DNA of 45,162 bases from Flavobacteriales bacterium (GTDB lineage Bacteria; Bacteroidota; Bacteroidia; UBA10329): the NCBI GenBank assembly GCA_049608805.1, contig JBMYXX010000001.1:1-45162 (forward strand), in the 5' to 3' direction. Positions 4,165 through 41,072 of the stretch are shown here, in pieces. The stretch's first letter is position 1; each line of letters begins with the position of its first letter. A program made the position numbers and the translations under genes. The notes beneath the pieces were generated by a model. That model did no database searches. It was not told where the DNA came from and saw nothing but the letters and a program-made list of their open reading frames with translations.

Positions 4165-4307
4165 AGATAAATGAGCTTGTGATGGTTTATGGAATTTTAA
4201 TGACCGATAGTAAGCGGCCTAGTCAAAAGTAATTGAATTACAAGAACAAATTGCTGGTGATTAGGTGATGTTATTCGCTAATTTCGGTGTTCTCAAAACA
4301 CTTATTT

Positions 4308-13529: not shown

Positions 13530-13629
13530 AAAATTTTACCCAATCTACACGGCTAAATTAGGCAAGCGTGCTGCATTAATTCACAACAGCTTTTATTTAT
13601 TGGTTTCATTTCGGAGGTTTGCCGTAACC

Positions 13630-14784
13630 ATGTCTAGAGCAAAAAAGGTTACGGCCTATATCCTATTGGTTTTCATTTTTCAGGAGGTGTTTTTTCGTTT
13701 AGCATTTCCGCTTCCCGAGCTAACTAATTTTGATAGATCATCTTTTGTCCTAAAGGTCAATCAAACTGGTGGTTTTGTGAGGAACAAGGGGTTTGAATGG
13801 TGGTCATTGCCAGACACTTCTGCATCATTTGGGATAGAGTACAATATGTATGGGTTTAGAGGTGCAGAATGGCAAGTGAAAAAGAAGAAAGGCCAGCAAC
13901 GAATAATGTTTGTTGGAGATAGTTTTACAGAGGGCATAATGGCCGCTGAAAATCAGACTTTCCCGTCCTATTTTAAGAAGGCTTCTAGCTCAACCCCTGT
14001 TGAAGTAATGAATGCGGGAATGCTTGGCGTTGGACTGCCAGAATACTTGCAGTTTATTGCTGATGCGGTTCCAATCTTCCGTCCTAATGTGGTGTTTTTA
14101 GTGCTGTATGCGAATGATTTTGTTAGCACCGAGATTGAAATCCCTGCTTATAACCTAGCGGAGGAATATCGGGATTTTACCCAACCAAGATTGCTAGAGC
14201 TATTGAATGCTTATAAGGAAGGAAACCCTGTTCCTTTCAGGAAACCATTGGTGTCGAATAGGATATTGCCTGATGTAGAAGACCCTAAATTTCCTTTTAC
14301 TGGAAAGCTAGATGAAATGTACTTACACGCGGACTCAACCCTCGTTAAGCACATGTTGAAAGCTGATTTTAACCCGTACAAGCTAAATCAGATGTTTAGG
14401 CTTGAACGCTCCTTAAGCACGCCTGCAAACTTTTTGGTTCCGTTAGATTTTTTCAGATACTATTCCGAGAAATACGAGTTTGAACCAATCGTTGTTTACA
14501 TCCCTTCTCGTAATCAGGTAACAGATTATTACCTTCAATACGACTATCGTTCTAGCCTCAAGTTTAATCACGAAATCTCATTTACAGACCCAATCTATAA
14601 CCGCAACCAGTTACTGTTAGCCGAGACATGTAAACGTATTGGTCTTGAGTATCACGATTTAACCAACACTATTACCGAGCAGGAACAGGCAGGTAATCAT
14701 TTGTATTGGAATTACGATGATCACATGAGAGCCAGAGGATATAAATTGATTGGTGAAGAACTACACCGAAGGTTTAGTGAGTGA
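13630..14784 (+). CDS. Membrane-anchored SGNH/GDSL-family hydrolase (esterase/acyltransferase-like)
   Basis: The start is placed at ATG 13630 (MSRAKKVTAYILLVFIFQEVFF = N-terminal TM anchor). The longer track ORF from 13315 runs antisense through the neighbouring gene. Block I reads IMFVGDSFTEG, and a block V-like DxxH reads YDDHMRARGYKLIGEEL. Confidence 0.7.
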   Translation: MSRAKKVTAYILLVFIFQEVFFRLAFPLPELTNFDRSSFVLKVNQTGGFVRNKGFEWWSLPDTSASFGIEYNMYGFRGAEWQVKKKKGQQRIMFVGDSFTEGIMAAENQTFPSYFKKASSSTPVEVMNAGMLGVGLPEYLQFIADAVPIFRPNVVFLVLYANDFVSTEIEIPAYNLAEEYRDFTQPRLLELLNAYKEGNPVPFRKPLVSNRILPDVEDPKFPFTGKLDEMYLHADSTLVKHMLKADFNPYKLNQMFRLERSLSTPANFLVPLDFFRYYSEKYEFEPIVVYIPSRNQVTDYYLQYDYRSSLKFNHEISFTDPIYNRNQLLLAETCKRIGLEYHDLTNTITEQEQAGNHLYWNYDDHMRARGYKLIGEELHRRFSE

Positions 14785-26863: not shown

Positions 26864-29800
26864 TTACTGTTTGGTTTTAATCACCTTTTTGAACAGAATA
26901 TCTGTACCAGAAAACACCTGAATGTAATAAATGCCACTGGCCCATTCCGTTGTGTTTAGCGTAGCAGATTGTGCTGTAAACTCTCTGTCAATAAGCGTTT
27001 TTCCACCCATGTCCATCACCTTTAAACGTTCAATGTTCTTCTCAGAATAAACGCTTAGCTGATTGTTAAATGGATTAGGCTGAATTGAGAAATTATTGGT
27101 CAATTCTTGAATGCCAACTGCAATCCATTCAAAACCTTCAGATATAGAAGCACAACCGTTTTCATCCGTTATCTCCACCGAATAACTTCCAGTAGCTATC
27201 GGTGTTAAACTCATTTGATTTTCACCATTAATTGGCAAGCCGTTTAAGTACCATTGGTAGGTTGCGGCCGTGGTTGAAGTAAGCTGAGAACCGTCTAGCG
27301 TAATTTCTGGCTGACTAGCCGTATTTACATCAACAGTAATTTGGCCTGTAGCGTCACCACATACGTTAGAAGCGGTTACCGAATATGTGGTTTCAACTGT
27401 TGGATTGACCAAGATGTCAGCGGTAGTTTCTCCGCCAGGCGACCATAAATAAGATTCAACATCTGTTGCTTCTGTAGTAATTGAAACCGACCCTCCATCA
27501 CAGACAGAATTTTCACCTGCAACGCTCACCGTTGGATTTGGGTTGATGGTTGCAATCACCTCGGTTCTGGCGGTGGAGCAACCTTCTTTTTGAACTTCCC
27601 AATCGTAGAAAAAGTAGTAGAAATCGTTACCAGCTGTGCTGGATGTAATGGATAGTAAACCAGGAATGTTGTAAGGGTAATCTGGCCCAGAATTGTTGCG
27701 ATAAAGGTTTGGTCCAGCAGAAGTGCCGAGTTGTAAATTCGTTCCTGTTGGAAGGTTGAAATTGAGTTCAACTCTACTTTCTCCATCAGGAATGTTTACC
27801 GTGGCATTTTCAATTACTGTCCCGGTAGCATCGCGTAATTCAATGGTTCGGTTTCCTGCACCCTCAGCATATACTTTTACTGAAACCAAGGTTACTGGCT
27901 CGTAGCAATCAAACAACAAACTTTGAACGTTATTGAAGGCACTTCCCGTTCCAAAATTATTGTCTGGTGCGCCTCCAAATTGTGGCGCTGGGGCAATTTC
28001 GCATTCCACAAAATAGGATGTGGTTGTGCTGATGGATGGTGTAGTAAAATTGGTTCCCGTATTCACTAACGTTCCGTTTGTGGCAGTATTAAACCAGTTC
28101 AAATCTCCATCGCCAGAGGCGGATAATACCACAGAACCTGTCCCGCACCTTGACGCACCCTGAACAGTAGGACTCGTTCCAATATTGGCAACAACAGGAG
28201 TTCTTTCAGAAATGCAACCAGGTGTTGTAATCTGCCAATCGTAGAAGAAATAGTAGAAATCGTTGCCCGCACTACTGCTAGTTATTGAAACCACATTTGG
28301 CACCGTATAAGGATAACTCGGGCTGTCGTTATTTCTAAATAAATCTGGGTCAGGAGTTGTGCCAAGTTGGTAATCCGTTCCTGGTTGTACCGTGAAGTTT
28401 AGCGTAACGATTTGTTCTCCGTCAGGAATATTTACAGTTGCAGACTGAAGCACATTTCCTGCATTGTCTTTTAGTAAAATGGTTCTGTTTCCTTCGCCTT
28501 GCGCGTAAACTTTAACTGTATTCAGCGTAAATGCTTCAAAACAATCAAACACCAGATGTTGGTCTCCCTGAAAGTTGTCTCCTCCACCAAATGTATTGTC
28601 TGCTGGGCCAACGTTATAAGGTGCAGGAAGCACGGCATCTTCGACATAATAAGTTGTAGTGTTTGGAAGGTTTGGCGTGTTAAAAGTTGGTCCCGTTGCT
28701 AAGGCATTTCCGCCTGTTTGCTCAGAATACCATTGCAATGTTCCTTGGCCACTGGCCGATAAATTCACAGAACCCGCAGAACATAAAAAGCCGTCTGAAG
28801 CAGGAGGCCCGTCAGGTTTGTTTACAGCTATGTAGTTGGTTTGTGAAATCACATCGCTACCATAATTATTGCTTGCCGTAAGCGAAACGGTGTAGGTTCC
28901 TTCACTTGCGTAAGTATGGGTTGGATTTTGGTCTGTGGAGGTGTTTCCATCACCAAAATTCCACAACCAACCAGTTGCTCCATTAATGGATAAATCTGAA
29001 AAGCTCACCAGCCCACTGCATGAAATTGTTGGGCCACCAACAAAATTCGCTGTTGGGGCAGAGGTAGGCTGCTCGCACTCCCACGTTAAGGCAAACCCAG
29101 ATTCACTTACCATAATATCTGAAGTTTGCCTGATGGTAATTGCGCCTCCGGTTGATGTAACTGTTCCGCCATTTGGCAGCGCAAAACCATCGTATTGCCC
29201 AATCAACGGACTTGCGGTAGTTGGGCCATCATAGAGGTAGATGTAGTCGTAGGTTTCTTCATAGCCAAACGAACTAAAATTGAGCGTTACCGATGTTGCT
29301 CCAACAGGAGAAATGGTGGTGGTAACATCTGTGTTATCAGCATAATTGCTGCTTGGACCACCGCTATCGTAAAGCGTACCTGTGCACCAAGTAAGCGTTT
29401 GAGAACCGTTAGTTGGCATTAATCCCGTACACGGATTGTTGGGGTTGATGCTCACAAAATCAACAATAGAATCTGTTTCGGTTCCGCAATTTCCGCCATC
29501 TACAAAAAGTGAAACGGTGTAGTTACCAAAACTGGTGTAGGTGTGAGAAGGATGTACGTCTGTGCTTGTTTGCCCATCGCCAAAACTCCAGAGATAAGAA
29601 GAGCCATTGTTACTTTGGTTATCAAAGTTTACGGTAAACGGAGCCTCGCAGGCAACGTTAATGTCCGCAGAAAAATCAGCGCTAACAGTTGGGTTAAACT
29701 CATCTCCAACACCAACCGCATACCAAGCATCTGTACATGCAATTACCTGCGGAGAACATCCGCCAAACAAATCAATTGCCGATTGGATGGCGTAAAAACG

Positions 29801-31357
29801 AGCATCATCATACTCAGATGTTTGGCCGAGGTAAACGGTCAAGTTTCGGTAGGCAATGGCCTGCGCATCGGCCAAGCCAATTCCGGTTACGTTGTACGTG
29901 TTACCAATATCGTTGGTGCCATTTTCGCCTTCTACCAAAATGTAAAACCACTTGTTCTGAACACCACTGTTTATGTGCACACCACCGTTATCTCCCGCTC
30001 CGGTAAACCAATTTGTGCCTTGGTAAGTGTCTGGGTCGCCAAACTGATTTGGGTTGCTCATCGAGCGCAGTGTGCCAACATCTTCGCCCATAAGCCAATC
30101 TCCAGAACTCGGATTGGCAATAAACTCTACTGCTGCGCCAAAAATATCTGAGAACGATTCGTTAAGCGCTCCCGGCTCATCTTGATACACAAGATTGGCT
30201 GCGTTTTCTGTTACGCCATGACTCATTTCGTGGCCGCAAATATCCAAGGCAGTAAGCGGGTTTCCATTGCCGTCACCGTAGGTCATTCTCAGCCCATCCC
30301 AAAACGCATTAAAATAGTTTTGGTCAAAGTGGATGTAGCTGTTAATCTGCATGTTATTGTTGTCAATTCCGTTGCGGCCATGCTGATTTAGAAAGTAATC
30401 GTAGGTCATTTCGGCACCCCAATGTGCATCTGTTGCGTATTGGTCAAACGTGGCGTTTGCATTATTCCAGTTGTTATCGTTGTCGGTAAAATCTACCGCA
30501 TTTCCGTAGTCGGTGCCTTCGTTCATGTCAAAGGTTCGAACACCATTTCCGCGTCCTGCTTCGCGAAGTCGAAACCCACCATTGTTACTATCTGTGGTTA
30601 TGGTTTGCGTGCCGCTGTAACCAGTTTGAGCCGTTCCTGGCACATCTGCCGAACAAATTCGATCATTCTGAAAAAGTACACTTCCAGTTTCTGCATCTAC
30701 AAAAACCTCATACCGCCCAACTGGTTTGTGTGCGTATATGTCAAACTTGTAGGCAAGCCTAAATGCTTCTGGTTTGGAGAATTCAAAAGTTGGGTCGATA
30801 TAGACCAAATTGGCCTTTGGGAAATAGGTGGCGTCTGGGTTTTCTGTTTCCCATTTTAGATGGTTTTCTTCGCCAGAAAGTTCCCATTTGTAGGATGCTG
30901 CGCCAACGTGGTTTTTGGCCAATTCAAGCGCAGAAAGCTCATCTAAACCAACGGTTTTAGACGGAATGTTTACTGGGATTCTCCCGTTTAAAGAAGTAAC
31001 CAAATCGTTTGAGCCATGGGCAAAAGCAAAAGCACCGTAAACCTCAATTCCGTTCTTGGTTATCTGATAGCGCTGGTGCTGAAAACCCAACTTATCGGTT
31101 TCATGTCGTAAGAGTTTGAGCTGAATTCCATCGCCAAGATTGAATGCTTTTTTTGCCCAATCGGGGAATTTGGATGATGGAAACTGAGCCGATTCTTTCA
31201 GCTTCACAAAACTGGGAATTGTAGCCCCGGGCTCCATTCTAACCATCTCGCTTGCGGCCAAAATATTTTTGTTTGGATTGTGTGGAGCCGTTTGGCCAAA
31301 AACGACTGGCAAAAGCAAGGAAAATAATGGGAGAAGTATGAATAAGCGTCTTAACAT
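26864..31357 (-). CDS. T9SS-secreted thermolysin-family (M4) zinc metalloprotease with PKD, CUB-like and duplicated beta-sandwich modules
   Basis: Signal peptide MLRRLFILLPLFSLLLPVVFGQ, with an FTP/PepSY-like propeptide. The HEMSH zinc motif lies at nt 30218-30232. GALNESFSD provides the third ligand, and GGVHINSGV is a thermolysin hallmark. Two PKD domains are present (FGDGQTSTDVHPSHTYTSFGNYTVSL and FGDGNTSTDQNPTHTYASEGTYTVSL). T9SS CTD: FSIQPNPFNNQLSVYS...GIYYIQV. Confidence 0.9.
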   Translation of the reverse strand: MLRRLFILLPLFSLLLPVVFGQTAPHNPNKNILAASEMVRMEPGATIPSFVKLKESAQFPSSKFPDWAKKAFNLGDGIQLKLLRHETDKLGFQHQRYQITKNGIEVYGAFAFAHGSNDLVTSLNGRIPVNIPSKTVGLDELSALELAKNHVGAASYKWELSGEENHLKWETENPDATYFPKANLVYIDPTFEFSKPEAFRLAYKFDIYAHKPVGRYEVFVDAETGSVLFQNDRICSADVPGTAQTGYSGTQTITTDSNNGGFRLREAGRGNGVRTFDMNEGTDYGNAVDFTDNDNNWNNANATFDQYATDAHWGAEMTYDYFLNQHGRNGIDNNNMQINSYIHFDQNYFNAFWDGLRMTYGDGNGNPLTALDICGHEMSHGVTENAANLVYQDEPGALNESFSDIFGAAVEFIANPSSGDWLMGEDVGTLRSMSNPNQFGDPDTYQGTNWFTGAGDNGGVHINSGVQNKWFYILVEGENGTNDIGNTYNVTGIGLADAQAIAYRNLTVYLGQTSEYDDARFYAIQSAIDLFGGCSPQVIACTDAWYAVGVGDEFNPTVSADFSADINVACEAPFTVNFDNQSNNGSSYLWSFGDGQTSTDVHPSHTYTSFGNYTVSLFVDGGNCGTETDSIVDFVSINPNNPCTGLMPTNGSQTLTWCTGTLYDSGGPSSNYADNTDVTTTISPVGATSVTLNFSSFGYEETYDYIYLYDGPTTASPLIGQYDGFALPNGGTVTSTGGAITIRQTSDIMVSESGFALTWECEQPTSAPTANFVGGPTISCSGLVSFSDLSINGATGWLWNFGDGNTSTDQNPTHTYASEGTYTVSLTASNNYGSDVISQTNYIAVNKPDGPPASDGFLCSAGSVNLSASGQGTLQWYSEQTGGNALATGPTFNTPNLPNTTTYYVEDAVLPAPYNVGPADNTFGGGDNFQGDQHLVFDCFEAFTLNTVKVYAQGEGNRTILLKDNAGNVLQSATVNIPDGEQIVTLNFTVQPGTDYQLGTTPDPDLFRNNDSPSYPYTVPNVVSITSSSAGNDFYYFFYDWQITTPGCISERTPVVANIGTSPTVQGASRCGTGSVVLSASGDGDLNWFNTATNGTLVNTGTNFTTPSISTTTSYFVECEIAPAPQFGGAPDNNFGTGSAFNNVQSLLFDCYEPVTLVSVKVYAEGAGNRTIELRDATGTVIENATVNIPDGESRVELNFNLPTGTNLQLGTSAGPNLYRNNSGPDYPYNIPGLLSITSSTAGNDFYYFFYDWEVQKEGCSTARTEVIATINPNPTVSVAGENSVCDGGSVSITTEATDVESYLWSPGGETTADILVNPTVETTYSVTASNVCGDATGQITVDVNTASQPEITLDGSQLTSTTAATYQWYLNGLPINGENQMSLTPIATGSYSVEITDENGCASISEGFEWIAVGIQELTNNFSIQPNPFNNQLSVYSEKNIERLKVMDMGGKTLIDREFTAQSATLNTTEWASGIYYIQVFSGTDILFKKVIKTKQ
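27542..28807 (-). repeat. Tandem internal duplication (~210 aa x2) within the M4 protease gene
   Basis: Residues ~851-1060 and ~1061-1272 share the motifs LSASG.G.L.W, TT.Y(Y/F)VE, FDC(F/Y)E, VKVYA.G.GNRTI.L.D, ATVNIPDGE and ITSS.AGNDFYYFFYDW. Confidence 0.8.
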
Positions 31358-31474
31358 TAATATGTTCTGAGTTCGAATGCTGTAAGATTACAACTTACGT
31401 GTGTTTATGTTCGTCAGGTTTTTGTCTAACCATCGATTTATCAACCTGATTACCTTTGGGCAACTTCAACCAAC

Positions 31475-32530
31475 ATGTCTAGCTACAAACGCGAGTTAAA
31501 ACCGGCACCAAATCAACTCTACGGAGAAAGCGGATTTGAGTTCGGCTCTTTCGATAAACCGATTCAGAACCCAAACCTGATTGATGCACAACGACCTTAT
31601 AAGCTGCCGCTGCCCAGAGGATTAAAATGGATGCAGCTGCGCGAATGGCAGGCATTTCAGATGAGTAACGGAACCCATTTTGTGATGGTGGCCATTTACA
31701 ACGCCAAGAAAATATCGTTGGTTCAGTTTATCGTTTACGATATCATCAACAACAAGAAATACCGCTACGAGAAGAAGGTGGCGCCTTGGTCGCTTGATGT
31801 TGCTACCGGGTTATTCGAAACAGAATCGAGCTATTTGAGCAAGAACTTTTCGCTTGTTGCTAAGCACGATTTGAACAAAAACTCATTGGAGCTCACCGCA
31901 TCAATCCGCAATCAGAAAGACTTGCCAGATGTTGAGGCAAAATTTACTGCTACGCATGATGTAAAGCGTTACGAACCAATGGTGGTTTGCATGCCGTTTT
32001 CGAAGAAGCGAGCCATGTATTCGCATAAATGTTTGATGCCGCTTTCTGGTAGCATTCAGTTTGGGAAAGACGTAATTCCGTTCCCAGAAAAGATTAGTCA
32101 ACTCATACTAGACGACCACAAAGGTTATTATCCGTACCCAACTATTTATGATTGGGGAACCGGAATTGGCCGCGATTCTGAAGGAAAACTCATCGGCTTT
32201 AACCTTACCGATAATCAGGTTCTAGACCACGAAACGAACAACGAAAATTGTTTGTGGCACGATGGCAAATTGAGTGTGCTTCCGCCTATCAAATTCAAAC
32301 GGCCAGAAGGCTACAAAGGCACGTGGTTTGTCAAGGATAATTACGGGAAAGTTGACCTAGAATTCCGACCAGTAATTCATACTGCGGTAGATGTAAATGC
32401 GCTCATTCTAAGAAGCAAATACCAAGGTCCGTACGGATTCTTCAATGGTTTTATTAAAAACCGAGATGGAGAAAAAGTGGAGATAAAAGAACTCTTTGGG
32501 ATGGGAGAAGATTTCTACCTGAGAGCATAA
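31475..32530 (+). CDS. DUF2804-like protein (no signal peptide)
   Basis: 351 aa. The pattern recalled for the DUF2804 family is present: an N-terminal KLPLPRGLKWMQLREWQAFQMSNGTHFVMVAIYNAKKISLVQFIVYD segment and a C-terminal YQGPYGFFNGFIKNRDGEKVEIKELFGMGEDFYLRA segment. The assignment is from memory, not from a search. Confidence 0.55.
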   Translation: MSSYKRELKPAPNQLYGESGFEFGSFDKPIQNPNLIDAQRPYKLPLPRGLKWMQLREWQAFQMSNGTHFVMVAIYNAKKISLVQFIVYDIINNKKYRYEKKVAPWSLDVATGLFETESSYLSKNFSLVAKHDLNKNSLELTASIRNQKDLPDVEAKFTATHDVKRYEPMVVCMPFSKKRAMYSHKCLMPLSGSIQFGKDVIPFPEKISQLILDDHKGYYPYPTIYDWGTGIGRDSEGKLIGFNLTDNQVLDHETNNENCLWHDGKLSVLPPIKFKRPEGYKGTWFVKDNYGKVDLEFRPVIHTAVDVNALILRSKYQGPYGFFNGFIKNRDGEKVEIKELFGMGEDFYLRA

Positions 32531-33624
32531 TGGCATCGTTGGTAAACAACATATTAGACAAGCTACTTTCTGTGGCTTGGCGGCTGTTGGATTTGCCGAT
32601 TTACGCCCTCATAATGCTTGCGGCATTGTTGTTTTTGCCTACTCTTTTTTTGTGGGTAAAACTGGTGCGTAAAAAGAGCCAAGTTGGTTTTAAAACTATG
32701 GTGTTTGCTTTGCTCGGATTGGTAATTCCGATGGCGCTTATTGTTGATTTTAAGTTGAAGTCTCATCAATCGGAAGTGGAGATTCTGAGCCAGAAATACA
32801 TGAACGCTTTAAATGCTGAAACGGCTCTCGTTCCGGCTGAAAAAATCATCTCACCAACTTCAAAAACGTACTTAGATGGCTACATGGATAGCCTCAAAGT
32901 TTGGGAACGTTCTATTCATGAAGCCATCACGCTAGTAACGTTTAAAAAGGAGGCGCCAAAAGCATCGTTTTTTCTGGCTGTAGTTGATTTAACCTACCCT
33001 GGGCTAGAGCCAAAAATCACTTCAGAATACACAGAGTTAAAAACACTAACCAGCAATTTCGCGAAAGCAAATGATTGCATATTGGCCGTAAACGGAGAGG
33101 CTGGAGATGGTATTTTTCAGAATTCTGGTTATGGAGAATGGGTAGGAAATTGGGTTTCTGATGGGAATGCAATTACGCTTTTAGATACAGATCAGCGCCC
33201 ATTTCTTTCGTTTGATAAGTACAATAAAGCCACATATTCTCCAGAAAATGAAGTTGTAAAAGAGTACACGGAGAAGATGTACAACACTATTTGGGGGCGT
33301 TGGGATTTGTTGGTTAATGGTGAATTTCCTGAGTTTGAAAACCAGCGTGTTTACGCGCAATGCGTGATGGGAATTGATGAGCCGGGAGACAAACTTTACC
33401 TGCTAATTGTTGATGGAAAAAGGCAGGAATACAGCCAAGGTTTGAACTTTGAAGAATGTGCTAGACTGCTTAAAGAATTGGGCTGCTATAATGCCATGGC
33501 TTGCGATCAGGGCGGCTCGGTTTGCATGTATGTAGAACCGATGAAAGGTATTGTTAATCGCCCAGCGGATAATGATGGTGATGAGCGCGTGGTTTACACT
33601 CATTTTGGAATTAAGGTACCATGA
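32530..33624 (+). CDS. Membrane-anchored phosphodiester glycosidase (NAGPA / DUF2233) family protein
   Basis: Two N-terminal TM segments (IYALIMLAALLFLPTLFLWVKLV and MVFALLGLVIPMALIVDF). NAGPA-type core: CILAVNGEAGD...LYLLIVDGKRQEYSQGLNFEECARLLKELGCYNAMACDQGGSVCMY. The start codon overlaps the upstream stop (TAATG at 32528-32532). Confidence 0.75.
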   Translation: MASLVNNILDKLLSVAWRLLDLPIYALIMLAALLFLPTLFLWVKLVRKKSQVGFKTMVFALLGLVIPMALIVDFKLKSHQSEVEILSQKYMNALNAETALVPAEKIISPTSKTYLDGYMDSLKVWERSIHEAITLVTFKKEAPKASFFLAVVDLTYPGLEPKITSEYTELKTLTSNFAKANDCILAVNGEAGDGIFQNSGYGEWVGNWVSDGNAITLLDTDQRPFLSFDKYNKATYSPENEVVKEYTEKMYNTIWGRWDLLVNGEFPEFENQRVYAQCVMGIDEPGDKLYLLIVDGKRQEYSQGLNFEECARLLKELGCYNAMACDQGGSVCMYVEPMKGIVNRPADNDGDERVVYTHFGIKVP

Positions 33625-35015
33625 AAAACAAGCTGTTTTTAGCTCTAGGAGCTGCGTTACTTCTTTCCGCTTGCGATACAGAATTGCGAGAGATTATTGT
33701 TTCTGGCGAAGCGTTAGAGTTTAAAACTGACTCAACTTTTGATGTTGAATATTTGGTGTCGCGAATGCCGATTGTAATGCTTGAAACGGACGGTCGAGAG
33801 ATTCTAGATGAACCTAGAATTATTGCCAAAATGGGAATTGTTGACAACGGTAAAGAACGCTATAACGGAAACTGGAATAAGTACACGGATTTTGAGGGAA
33901 AGGTGAGCATTGAAAGACGCGGTTTTACTTCTCAGAACTTCCCAAAATTGCAATATGCGTTTGAGACTATTGGAGAAGACAGTCTTCCGGAAAACGTTGA
34001 GTTACTGGGTTTTCCGATGGAGAACGATTGGATTTTGCATGCACCATACAGCGATAAATCTCTGATTAGAAATGTGCTGATTTACAACTGGTGGGAAGAG
34101 TTGGGCCACTATGCTTCGCGAACCAAGTTTTGCGAACTATTGCTCAATGGCGAGTACCGAGGCGTATATATTTTAATGGAGCAAATTAAATGGGATAAAG
34201 GCCGCGTTGACATTACCAAAATTGATTTAGACGATAACGCTGGCGATTCTCTAACGGGCGGTTACATCATTAAAATTGACAAGCCAATTGGTGGCGATGG
34301 CGAGTATGATTGGACAACATCTATCGACACATTTCAAAATGTAAAAACAAATGTTTCATTTCAGTATGACTATCCAAATGACGATGAAATTACCGATACG
34401 CAAGCCGATTATATTCAGTCTTACATCAGAGATTTGGAAACAGAATTGGCAGGAGAAACATTTAGTGAAGAAGAAGGGTTTCGGGAATACTTGGACGTAA
34501 ATTCCTTCATAGATTTCTTCATTATTCAGGAATTAGCGCATAATGTAGATGGTTACCGAAGTAGCACTTATCTCCATAAAAAGCGTGATTCCGAAGGAGG
34601 AAAACTGTTTGCTGGGCCCGTTTGGGATTTCAATCTAGCGCTTGGAAACACAACAGGTTGCGATGGCGAAAAAACCGAAGGCTGGGCACTTGACCATCCA
34701 TGCGACCCAACTGTAATTCCGTTTTGGTGGAAGAGAATGAACCAAGATTCTGTTTACAAAAGCCAATTGGTAAACCGTTGGTTTGAATTGCGGAAAGATG
34801 TTTTGAGCAATGAAGATTTACTGAAAGACATTGACGGCCAAGTTGCCGAATTAGGTCATTCGGTTGGTAGAAACTTTACCCGTTGGCCTATTCTTGGAAC
34901 TAAGGTTTGGCCCAACTATTTTGTTGGAGAAACCCACCAGCAAGAGATTGAATACTTGAAAAATTGGCTACTCAAAAGAGTGACTTGGATTGACCAAAAC
35001 ATAGAAAAACTCTAG
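33621..35015 (+). CDS. CotH kinase-family lipoprotein
   Basis: Lipobox MKNKLFLALGAALLLSAC. CotH hallmarks: NDWILHAPYSDKSLIRNVLIYNWW, NGEYRGVYILMEQIKWDKGRVD, DGYRSSTYLHKKRD and GPVWDFNLALGN. The ATGA overlap with the upstream stop lies at 33621-33624. Confidence 0.8.
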   Translation: MKNKLFLALGAALLLSACDTELREIIVSGEALEFKTDSTFDVEYLVSRMPIVMLETDGREILDEPRIIAKMGIVDNGKERYNGNWNKYTDFEGKVSIERRGFTSQNFPKLQYAFETIGEDSLPENVELLGFPMENDWILHAPYSDKSLIRNVLIYNWWEELGHYASRTKFCELLLNGEYRGVYILMEQIKWDKGRVDITKIDLDDNAGDSLTGGYIIKIDKPIGGDGEYDWTTSIDTFQNVKTNVSFQYDYPNDDEITDTQADYIQSYIRDLETELAGETFSEEEGFREYLDVNSFIDFFIIQELAHNVDGYRSSTYLHKKRDSEGGKLFAGPVWDFNLALGNTTGCDGEKTEGWALDHPCDPTVIPFWWKRMNQDSVYKSQLVNRWFELRKDVLSNEDLLKDIDGQVAELGHSVGRNFTRWPILGTKVWPNYFVGETHQQEIEYLKNWLLKRVTWIDQNIEKL

Positions 35016-35064
35016 CGCAACGGTTTAGTAATTTCATGGCTTCCAAAATGTTAACCACTTCAAT

Positions 35065-37713
35065 TTGAATCGACTTTTACTTTTTCTCGTTTTATCAGTT
35101 TTCAGCATTAACGTTTTTGGCCAGGTAGATCATTGGGAAACCGTGGTTTACGACAGTTCAGAATGGAATTATATTGTTCCAACCGAAGCAGTTCCAACAA
35201 CTTGGGTAGAGCCAACTTTCGATGATTCTTCTTGGGATACAGGTCAAGGTGGTTTTGGCTACGGAGACGGAGACGATAACACTAATGCGGTAGGCAGGTC
35301 GGTGTTTGTTCGGCACACATTTAACATTTCAAACCTCTCAGATATTCAACAGATTTATCTGCATGTTGACCATGATGATGGCTACGCAGCTTATTTAAAT
35401 GGGCACGAAATTGCGAGAGATAACCTCGGAACAATTGGAGTGCCAACGCCTTACGATGAGTTTACGCCAGCCGAGCGAGAAGCAATCATTTATGCGGGCG
35501 GAGCTCCTGCGGCTGTAGAAATTTCGGTTTCAAGTTTGGTTGACGGAAACAACACGCTGGCCATTCAGGTGCATAACAGAACAGCAGGGTCTTCAGACCT
35601 TACTTGCCGTCCGTTTTTAACCATCGGCACCAGTTCTACAGACGTAGTTTATGGCCCAACGCCAACTTGGTTTAACCCGCCAACACCGCTGGTTTCGCAC
35701 TTGCCAATTGTAGTGTTAAACACACTCGGACAGACCATTCCTGATGACCCAAGAATTGTAATTGAGATGGGAATTATTGATAATGGCGAGGGAAATATGA
35801 ACTCAGAAGCTGACCCATTCAATGATTACAATGGACTGATAAATATTGAGCGCAGAGGGTCAAGCTCGCAAAGCTTTCCTAAGAAGCAGTACGCACTAGA
35901 AACTCAAGATTCTGAAGACAATTCCTTAGACGTTTCGTTGTTGGGTTTACCAACAGAAAACGATTGGATTTTGCACGCTCCGTACAGCGATAAAACCCTA
36001 ATGCGCAATTACCTCACTTATAATTGGTGGCGAGACATGGGTTGGTACACCACCAAAACCAAATATTGCGAGGTAATTCTTAACGGTCAATACCAAGGCG
36101 TTTACATTTTAATGGAACAGATAAAATGGGACAACGACCGAGTGGATGTTGAGAAAATGGACATGGACGACAATGTCGGAGATTCTCTAACTGGCGGTTA
36201 TATTTTTAAGGTCGATAAAACCACAGGTAGCGGCCAGTATGATTGGGAGTCTCATGTAGATGAGTTTCAGGGAGCGACAAAATTGACACTTTTTCAGTAC
36301 GATTACCCGAATAGAGATGCCATTACTCACCAGCAAGAAAACTACCTGCAGCAGTTTGTTTACGATTGGGAGCAAGCCCTAATTGAGCCAACTTACACCA
36401 ATGCAGAAACAGGTTACAGAAAGTATGCTGATGTCAATTCTTTCATCGATTTTTTCATCCTGCAAGAGCTCACTAAAAATGTTGATGGTTACCGACTTTC
36501 TACGTACCTCAATAAACAGCGCGATTCGCGTGGTGGCAAGCTTCAGGTAGGTCCAGCATGGGATTTTAACATTGCCCTAGGAAATGCAGATTACTGCGAT
36601 GGCGGAGAAACTGAAGGTTGGGCGCTAGAGTTCGTTTGCGACCCTAAGATTATTCCTTTTTGGTGGGAAAGAATGAATCAGGACCCAGTTTACTGGAACC
36701 AATTGCAATGCCGTTGGGCGGAGTTGCGCTCAGGTCTTTTGAGTTGGGAAAGCATCAACAGCCAGATAGATGAAAACGTAGGTCTTTTAGGAGATGCCAC
36801 AGGCAGGAATTTTGACCAATGGAACATTCTGGGCACACAAATTTGGCCAAACAATTACGTGGGCGGAACGTACACTGCCGAGATATTTTATCTCAAACAA
36901 TGGCTGGGAAACCGGATTGCATGGTTAGATGCAAACATTGGTTCACCAACGTCAGATTGCGCTTCAAGTTATTCTGATGAAATCACCATTTCGGAAATTA
37001 ACTACAACTCGCACGATACCATTGCAACAGACGATTGGTTTGAACTCCAGAACCTAACATCAGAAGCAATTGACCTTTCATTCTGGACGGTTTATGATGG
37101 CAATGAGTTTAACACATATACCTTCCCAATGGGAACTCAGATTCTGCCAGATAGCTTCTTGGTTGTAACAGAAAACGATGCTGATTTTGCCGCAGTAAAT
37201 GCAGCTGTAACCAACCGAATTGGTTCGTTTAATTGGGGAATTGGCAACGGAGGAGATGAAATAACCATCCGAGATTTCAATAATGATTTTGTGGTTTCTG
37301 TAGATTTTGATGACGATGCTCCTTGGCCAACCGCGCCAGATGGCAACAGCCAAACATTAGAAAAATGGGATTGGGCAACCAACCTAAACGACCCCGCAAG
37401 TTGGCACGAAGGCTGCCCAGGTGGTTCGCCCGGAAGAGCGTTTACTTATTGCGTTTATGTTAGTGTAAATGAAGTCGAAACGAGTTCAGTTTCTATTTAT
37501 CCAAATCCGGCAAAAGACATGGTTTGGGTTGCTTTAAGCCAACCGTCAACCGTTTCTGTTTACAGTGTTTCTGGGCAGAAATTGCTTTCTGAAAAACTGC
37601 AAGATGGAAGAAGTCAAATCAATGTTTCAGACCTCTCAGCGGGTCTTTATTTGGTTGAGATTAGTGCCGAAAACAGCAACCAACGTATTACCCAAAAGTT
37701 AATTATTGAATGA
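35065..37713 (+). CDS. CotH kinase-family protein with N-terminal galactose-binding-like domain, lamin-tail domain and T9SS CTD
   Basis: TTG start with signal peptide (M)NRLLLFLVLSVFSINVFGQ. The CotH core is paralogous to the previous gene (NDWILHAPYSDKTLMRNYLTYNWW, NGQYQGVYILMEQIKWDNDRVD, GPAWDFNIALGN). LTD-like segment: ITISEINYNSHDTIATDDWFELQNLTSEAIDLSFWTVYDG. CTD: SIYPNPAKDMVWVAL...GLYLVEI. Confidence 0.8.
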   Translation: MNRLLLFLVLSVFSINVFGQVDHWETVVYDSSEWNYIVPTEAVPTTWVEPTFDDSSWDTGQGGFGYGDGDDNTNAVGRSVFVRHTFNISNLSDIQQIYLHVDHDDGYAAYLNGHEIARDNLGTIGVPTPYDEFTPAEREAIIYAGGAPAAVEISVSSLVDGNNTLAIQVHNRTAGSSDLTCRPFLTIGTSSTDVVYGPTPTWFNPPTPLVSHLPIVVLNTLGQTIPDDPRIVIEMGIIDNGEGNMNSEADPFNDYNGLINIERRGSSSQSFPKKQYALETQDSEDNSLDVSLLGLPTENDWILHAPYSDKTLMRNYLTYNWWRDMGWYTTKTKYCEVILNGQYQGVYILMEQIKWDNDRVDVEKMDMDDNVGDSLTGGYIFKVDKTTGSGQYDWESHVDEFQGATKLTLFQYDYPNRDAITHQQENYLQQFVYDWEQALIEPTYTNAETGYRKYADVNSFIDFFILQELTKNVDGYRLSTYLNKQRDSRGGKLQVGPAWDFNIALGNADYCDGGETEGWALEFVCDPKIIPFWWERMNQDPVYWNQLQCRWAELRSGLLSWESINSQIDENVGLLGDATGRNFDQWNILGTQIWPNNYVGGTYTAEIFYLKQWLGNRIAWLDANIGSPTSDCASSYSDEITISEINYNSHDTIATDDWFELQNLTSEAIDLSFWTVYDGNEFNTYTFPMGTQILPDSFLVVTENDADFAAVNAAVTNRIGSFNWGIGNGGDEITIRDFNNDFVVSVDFDDDAPWPTAPDGNSQTLEKWDWATNLNDPASWHEGCPGGSPGRAFTYCVYVSVNEVETSSVSIYPNPAKDMVWVALSQPSTVSVYSVSGQKLLSEKLQDGRSQINVSDLSAGLYLVEISAENSNQRITQKLIIE

Positions 37714-37793
37714 GCGGTTTATGATTGAAAACGAATCCATCAATTCAATAATTTTGTTCATCAAATCAAACAGATTGCCACAGCGCGCCTAAA

Positions 37794-38660
37794 ATGTCTT
37801 GGACTAATTACCACAGCCACACAAATTACTGTGACGGCACCAACACTCCCGAAGATTACATCAGAAAAGCTCTAGAACTTGAAATGCCTGTTTACGGCTT
37901 TTCATCTCATGCGCCTGTTCCTTTTTTCGATTGCAAATGGGCCATGAAAATGGACGATTTAGAAAGCTATTGCGAAGAGATTTATCGGCTTAAAAAGAAG
38001 TATGAAGAGCGCATAGAAATCTTACTTGGTTTAGAGGTAGATTATATTCCAGAGAAGATGGGGCCAACGGCCGATTTTCTTCAAACCGCAGGTTTAGATT
38101 ATACCGTTGGTTCGGTGCATTTTGTAGATGCATTTACGGGCGGAAAAGGCTGGGAAATTGACGGAACGTTAGATGTTTTCAAGAAAGGATTGCACGAAAT
38201 ATTTAAAGGAGATGTGAAGGCTGCCGTATGCCGTTATTACGAGCTAACGCGAGAAATGGTGGAGGAAGATTGTCCGGATATTATTGGACATCTAGACAAG
38301 ATTAAAATGCAGAATCTGCGTGCCGATTTTTTCAAAGAAGATGAAAAATGGTACCGAGATGAGGTGATGCAAACCTTAGAAGTAATTGCTAAAAAAGACG
38401 CAATTATGGAGGTGAATACGCGCGGATTGTACAAGAAACGAGCAAACGAAACTTACCCAAGTAAATGGGTTTTGGAAGAAGCGCTAAAGCTTGATATCGC
38501 AGTTCAGATTAATAGCGATGGGCACGTGCCAACCGAAATCCTTGGTGAGTTTGAAACTGCTGCCGAGCTATTGCTAGATGTTGGTTATGACAGTGCTGTT
38601 ATCCTCATTGATGGCGAATGGGCCGAAGTTGGCCTGACCAAAGATGGCTACGAAATCTGA
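37794..38660 (+). CDS. PHP-family histidinol-phosphatase (HisJ-type)
   Basis: N-terminal NYHSHTNYCDGT metal-binding motif. Later motifs GSVHFVD, IIGHLDKIK and INSDGH are typical of HisJ/PHP phosphoesterases. Confidence 0.75.
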   Translation: MSWTNYHSHTNYCDGTNTPEDYIRKALELEMPVYGFSSHAPVPFFDCKWAMKMDDLESYCEEIYRLKKKYEERIEILLGLEVDYIPEKMGPTADFLQTAGLDYTVGSVHFVDAFTGGKGWEIDGTLDVFKKGLHEIFKGDVKAAVCRYYELTREMVEEDCPDIIGHLDKIKMQNLRADFFKEDEKWYRDEVMQTLEVIAKKDAIMEVNTRGLYKKRANETYPSKWVLEEALKLDIAVQINSDGHVPTEILGEFETAAELLLDVGYDSAVILIDGEWAEVGLTKDGYEI

Positions 38661-38679
38661 TTTCAGGTTGTAGATCGTC

Positions 38680-38700
38680 ATGCTGAACTTGTTTCAGCAT
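38680..38700 (+). terminator. Hairpin downstream of the PHP phosphatase gene
   Basis: atgctgaa-cttgt-ttcagcat: an 8-bp stem, 20 nt after the stop at 38660. Confidence 0.35.
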
Positions 38701-38715
38701 CTATTCTATTAGACC

Positions 38716-38737
38716 CTGTTCCGATAGCCATCGGAAC
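38716..38737 (-). terminator. Hairpin downstream of pdxH
   Basis: tgttccgat-agcc-atcggaaca: a 9-bp stem ending 5 nt from the pdxH stop (38742-38744). It lies in the convergent gap. Confidence 0.4.
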
Positions 38738-38741
38738 AAGT

Positions 38742-39398
38742 TCAGGGTGACAATTGCTCAATTTTCCAACTACTTCCGTCTTTCGAGTAAACAAACCTGT
38801 CGTGCAAACGGCTTGGGCGACCTTGCCAGAATTCGACACGTGTTGGTTTGACTGAATAGCCACCCCAATGTGGAGGACGCGGAACATCAATACCTTCAAA
38901 CTTGGTTTTAGCAGCATCAAGGTTTTTTTGAAGCTCTTCCTTTCCTGTAATTGACTGGCTTTGTGCCGATGCCCAAGCACCTAATTGGCTTTCGCGTGGG
39001 CGTTTACTCCAGTATAAATCAGACACCTCTTCGGAGGCTTTCACAACTGTGCCTTCAATACGAATCTGCCGTTCTAATTCCGTCCAATGAAAGTTGAGTG
39101 CCGCATTTGGGTTAGCCTCAATCTCCTTGCCTTTGTGGCTATTGTAATTGGTGTAAAACACAAAACCACCAGCCTCTACATCTCGCCAATACACGATGCG
39201 TGATGACGGCTTTCCATCAAGCCCAACAGTAGAAATACACATGGCGTATGGATCTAGAATTTGGGCATTTACCGCTTCTTCCATCCAACTAGCAAATTGC
39301 TCCATTGGATTATCATTTAGCAACTCACGTGTAAGCGGTTTGGCGGCAAAATCTCGCCTAACGCTGTTTATATAATTACGGACTTCTTCTAGGCTCAT
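38742..39398 (-). CDS. pdxH: Pyridoxamine 5'-phosphate oxidase
   Basis: The full length matches the PdxH pattern: RIVYWRDVEAGGFVFYTNYNSHKGKEIEANPNAALNFHWTELERQIRIEG, WSKRPRESQLGAWASAQS, PPHWGGY..P..VEFWQGRPSRLHDR. Confidence 0.95.
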   Translation of the reverse strand: MSLEEVRNYINSVRRDFAAKPLTRELLNDNPMEQFASWMEEAVNAQILDPYAMCISTVGLDGKPSSRIVYWRDVEAGGFVFYTNYNSHKGKEIEANPNAALNFHWTELERQIRIEGTVVKASEEVSDLYWSKRPRESQLGAWASAQSQSITGKEELQKNLDAAKTKFEGIDVPRPPHWGGYSVKPTRVEFWQGRPSRLHDRFVYSKDGSSWKIEQLSP

Positions 39399-39411: not shown

Positions 39412-40464
39412 TTAAGGAGCAAATAACAAATTGTTCAGGGTTTGATTTCGAAGTAACCTTTCCTTTCTGTTGTTTACACCTTCCTTAGCTGCGAGCGCAT
39501 ATGCCTCAGGAATATTTTCTTCAAAAGCAGTCAGCTTTCGTTTGACTTCTTCTTTTCCAATAAGCGATAATCTATCAATATTGTTATAGAAGAGCACTAC
39601 CAAAGTAAAAAAATTGGCCTTGTTATACCAGTAACTGGTCTTTTTGAGCCTGAGACTTAGATAGAAAAGAGCTACCTCTTCTAAACCGTCAACGATGTCA
39701 TCCTTATTTTCAACCTCTTCAGAATATTCATCCAATAGATTATCCTTAATGTTTCGATTGAAAATACCACGTTCAACGGTCGCAATGATGTTTAGAACGA
39801 ACATCAGATGAACCATTCTTGAGATTTCATAATTGGTGAAGATTGGTTGCTCAAGAATAAGCTCTCTAAAAGAATCGCAGTCTATTTCCTTAGCCCAAGT
39901 CTTAAATTCTGGTGGTATGTTGGGGTTACGTTTTTTCGATTCCTCCGAATCAAAGTCGACAATTCCAGATAGCAGTTTAGCCAAAAGCATAAGTTCAGAC
40001 GCTGCATATTCGGTAGCAAGTTTTTCAATCTTTGTTAAACTGTAAAAAGTTCTATTAAGTCTTTGGAATATTTCAACTATATCAGGGTTGTCACTTTCCA
40101 TATCAAGCTCAATCAATGCAATCTCATATTTCAAGAAGTCTTCCCTTTCCTCTTTTGACAAATCCTTGTAGTGTTTCCCGTCAACCTTGAATTCATTACT
40201 TATATATTCCACAATAGAGTTCATTCGTTGTTGACCATCAACGACAACTGAGGTTGTTGTAAGTTCATCTGGGTTAAGTTCCCCTTTTGCTAGGAAAATT
40301 TGAGGGAACGGGTATCCTAGCAATATCGTTTTAATAAAGTCTATTTTGTGTATTGTTCGCCAGACAAGGTTCCGCTGAAAGTGGGGGGAAATAATCAGTT
40401 TTTCTCTTCTTATTTCTCCAATTAAATCTACCAATTGCCTAGAACGAATGTTGTATTTTATCAT
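39412..40464 (-). CDS. DUF262 (ParB/GmrS-like NTP-binding) domain protein without recognisable nuclease partner domain
   Basis: The N-terminus carries FQRNLVW, VVDGQQR (nt 40225-40239) and IFQRLN. The C-terminal ~200 aa are helical, with no H-N-H/DUF1524-type motif seen. The start overlaps the upstream stop by 4 nt. Confidence 0.7.
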   Translation of the reverse strand: MIKYNIRSRQLVDLIGEIRREKLIISPHFQRNLVWRTIHKIDFIKTILLGYPFPQIFLAKGELNPDELTTTSVVVDGQQRMNSIVEYISNEFKVDGKHYKDLSKEEREDFLKYEIALIELDMESDNPDIVEIFQRLNRTFYSLTKIEKLATEYAASELMLLAKLLSGIVDFDSEESKKRNPNIPPEFKTWAKEIDCDSFRELILEQPIFTNYEISRMVHLMFVLNIIATVERGIFNRNIKDNLLDEYSEEVENKDDIVDGLEEVALFYLSLRLKKTSYWYNKANFFTLVVLFYNNIDRLSLIGKEEVKRKLTAFEENIPEAYALAAKEGVNNRKERLLRNQTLNNLLFAP

Positions 40465-41072
40465 TTTAAATCCTTGTAAAGTTCAATGTTGTTTGACTGT
40501 TTAAACTCGAAGTAGAACGAACTCAAGTAAATTCCGGCATTGATCGATTTAAACAATTCGAAATGTGGTTCTGAAAGTTTATTGAAGAAGTTGAACCACT
40601 TCTTCTTAGCGTTTCCTGAGGGCATAAGGTCGGGACGAAAAATTCCTTTGGACAAATACTTTCTGTAAATAGGAAAATGTTCATCCCCATCCTTAGTTCT
40701 TCCGAAACTTGCAAGGTTGCTGAACCCCCTTGTTTCTCTGAAAACCATTTCCGTATAGTTGATGAACAAGTCTTTGTCCACTATCGCAATATCTAAATCC
40801 GATTCTCCTTCAATAAACCCCCTGTTTTTATAATAACTGTATCCAGTTTTAGCTGAACCTGCTACTTGAACAGCGGTAATTGGAACGTTGAAAAAGCTTG
40901 CAATTTTGTTTTGAATATCAAACTGAATTTCTGGCTTTCCATCAAAAACTTTGGTCGGAAAAGACAGGTATATTTTTCTTGCTACAATTTCATTTCTGAA
41001 TCCGTCAGCCAGTCCTTTGTCAATTCCTTCGTTGTACATCTTGTTTTCCGGGAGCCAAGTTAGCCAATTCAA
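40461..41072 (-). CDS. Small pol-beta-superfamily nucleotidyltransferase-like protein
   Basis: The signature hG[GS]...[DE]h[DE]h is present as VAGSAKTG-x15-SDLDIAIV (nt 40791-40859). The track start is TTG 41072. An in-frame ATG at 41039 (MYNEGIDKG...) is an alternative. Confidence 0.55.
   Translation of the reverse strand: MNWLTWLPENKMYNEGIDKGLADGFRNEIVARKIYLSFPTKVFDGKPEIQFDIQNKIASFFNVPITAVQVAGSAKTGYSYYKNRGFIEGESDLDIAIVDKDLFINYTEMVFRETRGFSNLASFGRTKDGDEHFPIYRKYLSKGIFRPDLMPSGNAKKKWFNFFNKLSEPHFELFKSINAGIYLSSFYFEFKQSNNIELYKDLK

Follow-up and report, generated by a model that had tools for sequence, protein, structure and literature searches.

Four open reading frames (ORFs) of a Flavobacteriales bacterium, all on the + strand at positions 31475-37713 of contig JBMYXX010000001.1, follow one another so closely that the question arises whether they encode a single pathway. 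We call them P1 to P4 in the order in which they stand in the sequence, and by the window we mean the whole stretch of 45,162 nucleotides that was analyzed. P1 (31475-32530, +) encodes a DUF2804 protein of 351 aa (Pfam PF10974); P2 (32530-33624, +) encodes a predicted inner-membrane-anchored phosphodiester glycosidase of the NAGPA/DUF2233 type (364 aa, Pfam PF09992); P3 (33621-35015, +) encodes a CotH kinase-fold lipoprotein of 464 aa with the lipobox LLSA-C18; and P4 (35065-37713, +) encodes a multidomain CotH of 882 aa that begins with TTG and is a predicted cargo of the T9SS (type IX secretion system). The P1 stop and the P2 start share 1 nt within TAATG (32528-32532, +; the sequence reads gcaTAATGgca), the P2 stop and the P3 start share 4 nt within ATGA (33621-33624, +; accATGAaaa), and a 49 bp spacer (35016-35064) lies between P3 and P4. 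A first-pass annotation of this DNA had described the same ORFs and junctions, the same four families, a series of predicted locations from the cytoplasm to the cell exterior, and a pair of paralogous CotH cores. All of this stood when we re-read the sequence and ran hidden Markov model searches against Pfam: P1 has no signal, P2 has a transmembrane hairpin, P3 has a lipobox, and P4 has a signal peptide and a C-terminal sorting domain (CTD). The phosphodiester theme of that annotation was also borne out by the family and motif evidence given below. Its step from tight coupling to one pathway was not, as the four-gene order is confined to a narrow clade. We found that the locus is a mosaic, and that its conserved unit consists of a periplasm-facing NAGPA protein together with an exported CotH, to which a GlpQ-like GDPD, also exported, is often added; the most likely function of this unit would be the extracytoplasmic processing of phosphodiester-linked glycoconjugates.

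The mosaic becomes visible when the window is compared with related loci, which we label with L-numbers (L001, L175, and so on). In L001, L008, and L009, the gene order and the overlaps are as in the window, and the position of the TAATG junction is common to all four. The four-gene order is limited to this clade, in which NAGPA is ≥72% identical. Synteny between L175 and the window extends to either side (77% identity for DUF2804, 71% for P4, 91% for the PHP protein, 86% for PNPOx, and 78% for GT1), but precisely P2 and P3 are missing from L175, where just 98 bp separate DUF2804 from the P4 orthologue; thus, the NAGPA-CotH lipoprotein pair behaves as a two-gene cassette. We also sampled nine DUF2804 loci, eight of them outside the window's clade. 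In L175 (DUF2804 78% identical in this sampling), DUF2804 is followed by a gene with CotH, lamin-tail (LTD), and CTD domains, and L090 (70%) is arranged in the same way, without the two middle genes. In L172 (61%), a divergent LTD/CotH/CTD gene adjoins DUF2804-START; in L173 (59%), a CotH/CTD gene lies 2.6 kb from DUF2804 with a YegS-type lipid kinase between them; and in L171, L088, L174, and L089 (66-52%), there is no CotH. NAGPA is missing from L175, L090, L172, and L173 alike. In the relatives, DUF2804 and P4 sit between the same M4 protease and PHP/PNPOx genes, and P4 is resident at the locus. A metagenome scan with the P3/P4-type CotHs gave 80 further loci at 41-53% identity, most of them a CotH with a T9SS CTD, and none of the 80 has NAGPA, DUF2804, or GDPD in its flanks.

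When the scan is made from the side of the glycosidase, the pair is found well beyond the clade. A search with an alignment of P2 homologues, taking one genome per species, gave 80 loci from Bacteroidota, Planctomycetota, Verrucomicrobiota, Kiritimatiellia, and Poribacteria, and all ORFs of these loci were searched with profiles. An iterated CotH profile detected CotH in 29 loci and was used instead of single-sequence phmmer searches with P3 and P4, which detected it in just 14. An exported CotH lies ≤300 bp from NAGPA in 21/80 loci, with one further at 910 bp; an exported GDPD/DUF4996 protein adjoins NAGPA in 19/80, and both partners adjoin it in 7/80. DUF2804 adjoins NAGPA in 2/80 (L008 and L009), both from the window's own clade. 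CotH fills 21 of the 160 NAGPA-adjacent slots as compared to 5 of ~980 other flanking genes (odds ratio 29, Fisher p 1e-14, uncorrected for phylogeny). Six arrangements of the NAGPA-CotH pair were seen, differing in whether CotH is upstream or downstream of NAGPA, whether the two genes share a strand, and whether CotH is short or long; they span three phyla (Bacteroidota, Kiritimatiellia, and Planctomycetota), and direct overlap of the two genes is also seen in unrelated lineages (L004/L038, L035, L036, and L042). Export signals are present on nearly all NAGPA-adjacent CotHs, a lipobox on most of the short forms and a signal peptide on the long ones; neither is seen in L075 and L085, and L030 is a short form without a lipobox. 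Most NAGPA-adjacent GDPDs are likewise exported by lipobox or signal peptide, and several have a LysM domain. In a Pfam census of ~180 neighbor genes, CotH, GDPD/DUF4996, and LysM are the only recurrent function-related partners, and no SusC/D, TonB, phosphatase (PhoA, PhoX, or PhoD), or Pst protein recurs.

Two further patterns were seen around P2-type NAGPA genes. Neighbors with both GDPD and DUF4996 are found in L006 (9127-10332), L045-L061, and L070-L085, and a same-strand CotH-NAGPA-GDPD trio is present in L006, L013, L021, and L070. In Crocinitomicaceae/Fluviicola loci without CotH (L017, L019, L022, L023, L025, L028, L031-L033, and L039), a 320-340-aa SRPBCC-type protein (Polyketide_cyc2 and GyrI-like) is encoded directly upstream of NAGPA on the same strand and may be a lipid- or small-molecule-binding partner.

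Are the two CotH proteins of the locus likely to be enzymes, and how are they related? P3 matches Pfam CotH (PF08757) with an E-value of 3.5e-62 (211 bits) and P4 with 6.5e-58 (197 bits), the cut-off being 23.8 bits. P4 also matches LTD (9.1e-13), Por_Secre_tail (PF18962, 2.8e-14), and TIGR04183 (2.3e-14), with the CTD at residues 811-881. Along the P4 gene, all on the + strand, an N-terminal beta domain without a family match (35125-35679) is followed by the CotH domain (35845-36927) and the LTD (36967-37296), both from Pfam, and by a type-A T9SS CTD (37495-37707) from Pfam and NCBIfam. Neither the N-terminal domain of P4 nor the N-terminus of P3 has a significant match in Pfam, and the former has just 26 homologues, all of them on CotH/LTD proteins or truncated contigs. 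The P3 N-terminus, MKNKLFLALGAALLLSAC, includes the lipobox (LLLSA-C18), which is kept in the L001, L008, and L009 orthologues and so in all four. The P4 N-terminus, (TTG)NRLLLFLVLSVFSINVFGQ, is signal-peptide-like, with export via the T9SS predicted; the TTG start is also found in the L008 and L009 orthologues.

The match of a CotH profile built from NAGPA-adjacent proteins to B. cereus CotH (5JD9, E 3.3e-31) takes in almost the entire chain. In the alignment, D224 and D247 of B. cereus, the counterparts of B. subtilis D228/D251 at the same spacing of 23 residues, fall on D310/D336 of P3 (nt 34548-34550 for the catalytic and nt 34626-34628 for the metal-binding residue, +) and on D474/D500 of P4. 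Mutating D228 (catalytic) or D251 (metal-binding) of B. subtilis CotH inactivates the kinase (PMC7821199). Both aspartates are invariant in 16/16 aligned CotHs, namely P3, P4, and 14 from NAGPA loci elsewhere. The catalytic residues on which the first-pass annotation's kinase reading leans are therefore conserved, and P3 and P4 are not obvious pseudokinases, because both essential aspartates are present. In the lysine strand, B. cereus EKKSY aligns with PKLQY in P3 and PKKQY in P4. Membership of the same Pfam family and the two shared aspartates are where the likeness to Bacillus CotH (B. subtilis; B. cereus 5JD9/5JDA) is found. Overall identity is low (phmmer E 0.003), and WDFN stands in P3 and P4 where Bacillus CotH shows WDYD. 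Bacillus CotH acts in the mother-cell cytoplasm, with ATP, on the coat proteins CotB and CotG; in contrast, P3 and P4 are exported (as a lipoprotein and as T9SS cargo) in a Gram-negative non-sporeformer that offers no CotB/CotG context.

Over 418 aa, the CotH cores of P3 and P4 share 58% identity (E = 5e-177). In a neighbor-joining tree of CotH domains, built on a subsample, the P3 clade (window, L001, L008, and L009) is sister to the P4 clade (those genomes and L175), and both are nested within the T9SS-type CotH radiation. In other lineages, the CotHs that adjoin NAGPA make up at least two more distant clades with 15-24% identity to P3, so that CotHs adjoining NAGPA belong to at least three separate clades of this tree. 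These relationships indicate that P3 is a duplicate of a secreted P4-type CotH in which the T9SS architecture was exchanged for a lipid anchor. Because such a paralogous replacement gave a lipoprotein partner, as is found elsewhere, the NAGPA-CotH pairing appears to have been selected for and not merely inherited.

The second member of the pair, P2, matches Pfam NAGPA (PF09992) with an E-value of 3.4e-19 (70 bits, cut-off 25), and its N-terminal region has no significant match in Pfam. The AlphaFold2 model (pLDDT 90.8) has an amphipathic helix at residues 2-20 and two long helices at 24-49 and 54-95, which we read as a transmembrane hairpin at ~22-72, a stalk helix up to residue 95, and a predicted periplasmic catalytic domain at 120-364. 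The hairpin loop, RKKSQVGFK, has five positive charges; by the positive-inside rule, the catalytic domain should therefore face the periplasm. N6, D10, P23, and D73, which lie in or beside the hairpin, are invariant across 96 homologues. In Foldseek searches, the model matches 3OHG (E 1.3e-17, TM-score 0.72, 20% identity) and vertebrate NAGPA (E 3e-16 to 1e-13, TM-scores of 0.6-0.7 normalized to target length). Human NAGPA has an invariant DGGGS motif with the catalytic D286, for which D286A data are available (PMC13474241). The equivalent in P2 is D326-Q-G-G-S330 (33505-33519, +): D326, G328, G329, and S330 are invariant in the 96 homologues and Q327 is present in ≥90%, and a profile alignment places MaCDqGGSs of the P2 family opposite LDGGGST of 3OHG and LDGGGSA of zebrafish NAGPA. 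P2 thus keeps the catalytic Asp, the Gly-Gly, and the Ser of the motif, with Gln and not Gly at the second position. Proteins of the P2 type make up a small family with sharp limits: there are 80 clusters at E ≤ 1e-30, as compared to 2363 NAGPA-domain clusters at E ≤ 1e-3. From sequence and model, P2 would be a periplasm-facing phosphodiester glycosidase of the NAGPA/DUF2233 type. The long N-terminal extensions of some family members were considered as CotH fusions and set aside; Pfam finds NAGPA only in these proteins, which come from high-GC genomes and probably have mis-called starts.

Among solved structures, the nearest to P2 is BACOVA_00430 (3OHG, DUF2233), from Bacteroides ovatus and so also from Bacteroidota; its physiological substrate is not reported in the literature that we searched. 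Of its 285-residue chain, just residues 164-275 align significantly with the P2-family profile, and because the alignment is confined to this part, 3OHG offers no counterpart of the amphipathic helix and transmembrane hairpin of P2. A parallel in known biology is the vertebrate mannose-6-phosphate cover-uncover system of GlcNAc-1-phosphotransferase and NAGPA, with which P2 shares the NAGPA fold and the catalytic Asp of DGGGS. Human NAGPA (PMC13474241) and the P2 model are both membrane-tethered by a stalk that keeps the catalytic domain off the membrane; however, the human anchor is a C-terminal transmembrane helix with an EGF stalk and the P2 anchor is an N-terminal hairpin, in addition to the change of motif to DQGGS. 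Both systems pair a phosphodiester glycosidase with a phosphotransfer-type enzyme, but the partner in the vertebrate pathway is a Stealth/GNPT phosphotransferase, whereas the partner of P2 is a kinase-fold CotH. No Stealth/GNPT-type transferase was found in the Pfam matches of the window's large ORFs (three of which have no match at all) or among the recurrent neighbors of the 80 NAGPA loci.

P1, at the upstream end, has a different history. It matches Pfam DUF2804 with an E-value of 8.5e-44 (150 bits, cut-off 26.9) over profile positions 37-336 of 339 and has no hydrophobic N-terminus and no export signal, so that a cytoplasmic location is predicted. By mean column identity (61% vs 39%), the conservation of DUF2804 far exceeds that of the other three proteins. 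Homologues with 45-60% identity are present in Chitinophagales, Desulfobacterales, Chloroflexi, and even one stramenopile, and DUF2804 is found in many phyla without any such gene cluster. The AlphaFold2 model (pLDDT 93) is an all-beta, AttH/CrtC-like double barrel, and Foldseek matches it at probability 1.0 to the same fold in 25-phosphosteroid lyase, kievitone hydratase, the fungal Diels-Alderases CghA, Fsa2, and Phm7, and the NE1406 AttH protein (2ICH), with E-values of 3e-8 to 1e-5. With TM-scores of just 0.4-0.56 and identities of 9-12%, the likeness is at the level of the fold, and no catalytic residues can be transferred. Enzymes of this fold bind hydrophobic small molecules, in line with the lipid-gene neighbors of DUF2804 elsewhere and with the place of a DUF2804 member in the GliR glycerolipid regulon of P. 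aeruginosa (PMC8151288). The fold, the lipid-gene neighbors, and the regulon suggest that P1 is a cytoplasmic enzyme acting on a hydrophobic substrate. Around the DUF2804 genes of L088, L089, and L171-L173, the neighbors include START, fatty-acid desaturase, patatin, and YegS/DAGK lipid kinase, as well as acyl-CoA dehydrogenase with ketoacyl synthases and LolA; no single explanation covers both this lipid-gene context and the proximity of DUF2804 to T9SS CotH. We considered and dropped the view that DUF2804 is wholly unrelated to the cluster, since it stands beside or near a T9SS CotH in L090, L172, L173, and L175. P1 is probably a resident neighbor at the locus and not part of the conserved module. 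In NCBIfam, P1, P2, and P3 match no model.

How might these parts work together? We tentatively favor, at somewhat less than even confidence, a composite of two layers in which the NAGPA and exported CotH pair acts on a phosphodiester-linked glycoconjugate, rather than one pathway of four steps. The resident layer would consist of the cytoplasmic DUF2804 protein and the T9SS-secreted CotH-LTD enzyme P4. Between these genes would sit the cassette layer, the NAGPA-type P2 and the CotH lipoprotein P3, a unit that close relatives either have or lack as a whole; a cassette of this kind would recur across phyla, often joined or replaced by an exported GlpQ-like GDPD/DUF4996(/LysM) phosphodiesterase. 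Outside the cytoplasm, P2 and P3 would have one common phosphodiester-linked glycoconjugate as their target. P2 would cleave a sugar-1-phosphate diester at its glycosidic bond, in the way that NAGPA acts on GlcNAc-1-P-6-Man, and so expose a phosphomonoester, and the CotH enzyme would perform a phosphoryl transfer, either on that molecule or on a protein associated with it. The preferred substrate would belong to the envelope of the cell itself and undergo turnover or remodeling at the periplasmic face of the inner membrane, and P4 may perform a CotH step on extracellular anionic polymers bound via its LTD. An own-envelope substrate is favored because the hairpin with its four invariant residues is conserved in a small, delimited family, and because the genes flanking NAGPA include housekeeping ones, some partners have LysM, and no uptake genes lie nearby. 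P2-P3 translational coupling is probable, because the P3 start overlaps the P2 stop. A scan for sigma-70 promoters and terminators over 31200-38900 gave 17 hits vs 14.3 and 11 hits vs 7.8 in shuffled controls, numbers too near the controls to inform on operon boundaries, and Bacteroidota promoters differ in type.

Several points weigh against this account. No ATP pool on which an enzyme with a kinase fold could draw is known from the periplasm or the cell exterior, and the phosphoryl donor for an exported kinase fold is unexplained and is the main gap. P3 has K-L in the lysine-bearing strand, where most CotHs, Bacillus CotH included (K-K), have K-K or K-H, and the P2 motif DQGGS differs from DGGGS. 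Neither CotH nor GDPD is found within 10 kb in 47/80 NAGPA loci, the adjacency counts are not phylogenetically independent, and no NAGPA-CotH fusion was found among the P2-family members searched with Pfam. In addition, DUF2804 stands beside or near a T9SS CotH in 4/8 loci outside the window's clade (L090, L175, L172, and L173), and DUF2804 may thus be linked to the secreted CotH.

The nearest precedent for a CotH in such a setting is found in Gram-positive Pel loci, which carry cotH, polyphosphate polymerase, DUF4956, and DUF4832 as accessory genes (PMC7112168). As in the NAGPA loci, a CotH homologue of a non-sporeformer is tied there to extracellular polysaccharide or phosphate chemistry; however, the Pel loci differ in phyla and envelope type, and none of their other partners (VTC-like polyphosphate polymerase, DUF4956, and DUF4832) is among the recurrent families of the NAGPA loci or the scanned window genes.

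The rival that survives best, though we consider it rather unlikely, is scavenging, in which NAGPA, CotH, GDPD, and the secreted CotH-LTD protein would degrade foreign phosphodiester polymers for phosphate and sugars. The polymers would be teichoic acids (including their GlcNAc-1-P-MurNAc linkage unit), phosphoglycans, or material associated with extracellular DNA, with P4 acting outside and P2 and P3 acting on imported fragments in the periplasm. Hydrolases make up 2/3 of the recurrent partners, the GDPD/DUF4996 neighbors are GlpQ-like and several have the peptidoglycan-binding LysM, and P4 is T9SS cargo that adjoins a secreted M4 protease. Phosphodiester polymers that resemble teichoic acids are substrates of GlpQ-type GDPDs and of surface phosphoesterases with an LTD; during phosphate starvation, teichoic acids are degraded by GlpQ and PhoD, the LTD is typical of surface phosphoesterases, and ShfP-type enzymes are sometimes fused to NAGPA domains (PMC11488536). 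The GlpQ/PhoD/ShfP enzymes, many of them LTD-fused, thus share export and phosphodiester polymers as a theme with the GDPD neighbors of the P2 family and with the LTD of P4; however, those systems are Gram-positive and consist of hydrolases only, without a CotH component. The genetic context speaks against scavenging. SusC/SusD, TonB receptors, the phosphatases PhoA, PhoX, and PhoD, and Pst are absent from the recurrent neighbors and equally from the window ORFs scanned with Pfam, and the NAGPA flanks include the housekeeping genes purK and gcpE and no uptake genes of the kind found in polysaccharide utilization loci. Moreover, the NAGPA protein is tethered to the inner membrane by a conserved hairpin, and a kinase-fold enzyme has no obvious catabolic role.

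The single pathway proposed in the first-pass annotation, in which a phosphorylated or phosphodiester-linked product would be passed from DUF2804 via NAGPA to the surface CotHs, we now regard as improbable. The shared strand, the overlapping or close junctions, and the maintenance of the order in four related genomes all fit it, as do the run of predicted locations from cytoplasm to exterior and the occurrence of DUF2804 next to or near T9SS CotH outside the clade (L090, L175, L172, and L173). However, the order is seen just where NAGPA is ≥72% identical, the middle genes are missing in L175 and L090, and co-occurrence of the four families does not extend to relatives beyond the immediate clade, with DUF2804 by NAGPA-family genes in 2/80 species and DUF2804 or NAGPA by P3/P4-type CotH in 0/80 loci. 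DUF2804 is also the most conserved protein of the four (61% vs 39%), occurs in many phyla without the cluster, and at 52-66% identity (L171, L088, L174, and L089) has unrelated, mostly lipid-related neighbors. What recurs beyond the clade is the NAGPA-CotH pair, which that annotation had not singled out; the four-gene set, which it had taken as the unit, does not.

It is very unlikely that NAGPA and CotH are functionally unrelated neighbors by chance or history, with the CotHs perhaps non-catalytic adhesins or structural proteins: the 47/80 NAGPA loci without CotH nearby, the lack of fusion proteins, and the fame of Mucorales CotH proteins as surface ligands would agree with this, but the ~29-fold enrichment over flanking background, the six arrangements in three phyla and at least three CotH clades, the change of a secreted-type CotH here into a lipoprotein like the partners elsewhere, and the catalytic and metal-binding Asp invariant in 16/16 aligned CotHs all speak against it. 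A long shot is an ATP-independent, two-step system of periplasmic phosphorylation, in which CotH would move a sugar-1-phosphate from a lipid-linked diphospho-sugar (e.g., undecaprenyl-PP-GlcNAc) or another non-ATP donor to an envelope glycan or protein, and the tethered NAGPA would then strip the sugar cap to leave a phosphomonoester. If true, it would be a bacterial counterpart of the mannose-6-phosphate cover-uncover logic with a different transferase fold, and it would explain exported CotH 'kinases' that work without ATP.

The surroundings of the locus within the window hold several other genes of note. The PHP-domain protein directly downstream of P4 (37794-38660) belongs to the HisJ histidinol-phosphatase family (TIGR01856, 6e-51) and is 87-91% identical in relatives with or without the NAGPA-CotH cassette; in L001, a HAD hydrolase gene and an HD-domain gene are inserted between P4 and the PHP gene. 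The window is dense in T9SS cargo genes (21469-26802; 26864-31357, -; 35065-37713, which is P4; and 42434-44314). The first encodes a 1777-aa Laminin_G_3/fn3 protein, the second a 1497-aa M4 thermolysin-PKD-CUB protease that is divergent from the cluster and is kept upstream of DUF2804 in L001, L008, and L009, and the last a 626-aa protein with a CTD match only. Two overlapping genes of low GC content (0.36-0.40) at 39412-41072 (-) encode a 350-aa GmrSD_N/DUF262 protein (Pfam 5e-21; PADLOC NsnA 4e-22) and a 203-aa protein without a family match; this gene pair is absent between the PNPOx and GT1 genes of the syntenic L008 and L175 and looks like an inserted defense-type islet. Further upstream, 4287-6281 encodes a 664-aa protein in which DUF6851 is joined by signatures of the second helical bundle of vanadium chloroperoxidase and of PAP2-type acid phosphatase/haloperoxidase, and the TTG-start ORF at 13315-14784 overlaps the opposite-strand ORF at 11559-13529 (-) by ~215 nt, so that its true start is probably further downstream.

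The literature that we searched contained nothing relevant on CotH linked with NAGPA, with a phosphodiester glycosidase, or with T9SS, and no functional description of this gene set, in agreement with the first-pass annotation. The NAGPA-CotH(-GDPD) extracytoplasmic module is undescribed, and its components are ordinary members of known families. Bacteroidota, cellulolytic Firmicutes, and fungi have many exported CotH proteins, for which we know of no substrate, and we know of no physiological substrate for bacterial NAGPA/DUF2233 proteins. Exported CotH proteins raise the question of how a kinase fold can function outside the cytoplasm. For the reading of genomes, the locus shows that an operon-like block of four genes can be pieced together from resident genes and a mobile cassette of two, which calls for caution before coupling is taken to mean one pathway. 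For the two families themselves, the recurrent, modular pairing of NAGPA with CotH, together with the GlpQ-like phosphodiesterase, provides a joint and testable hypothesis, namely that both may act on a shared, phosphodiester-linked glycoconjugate of the cell envelope.

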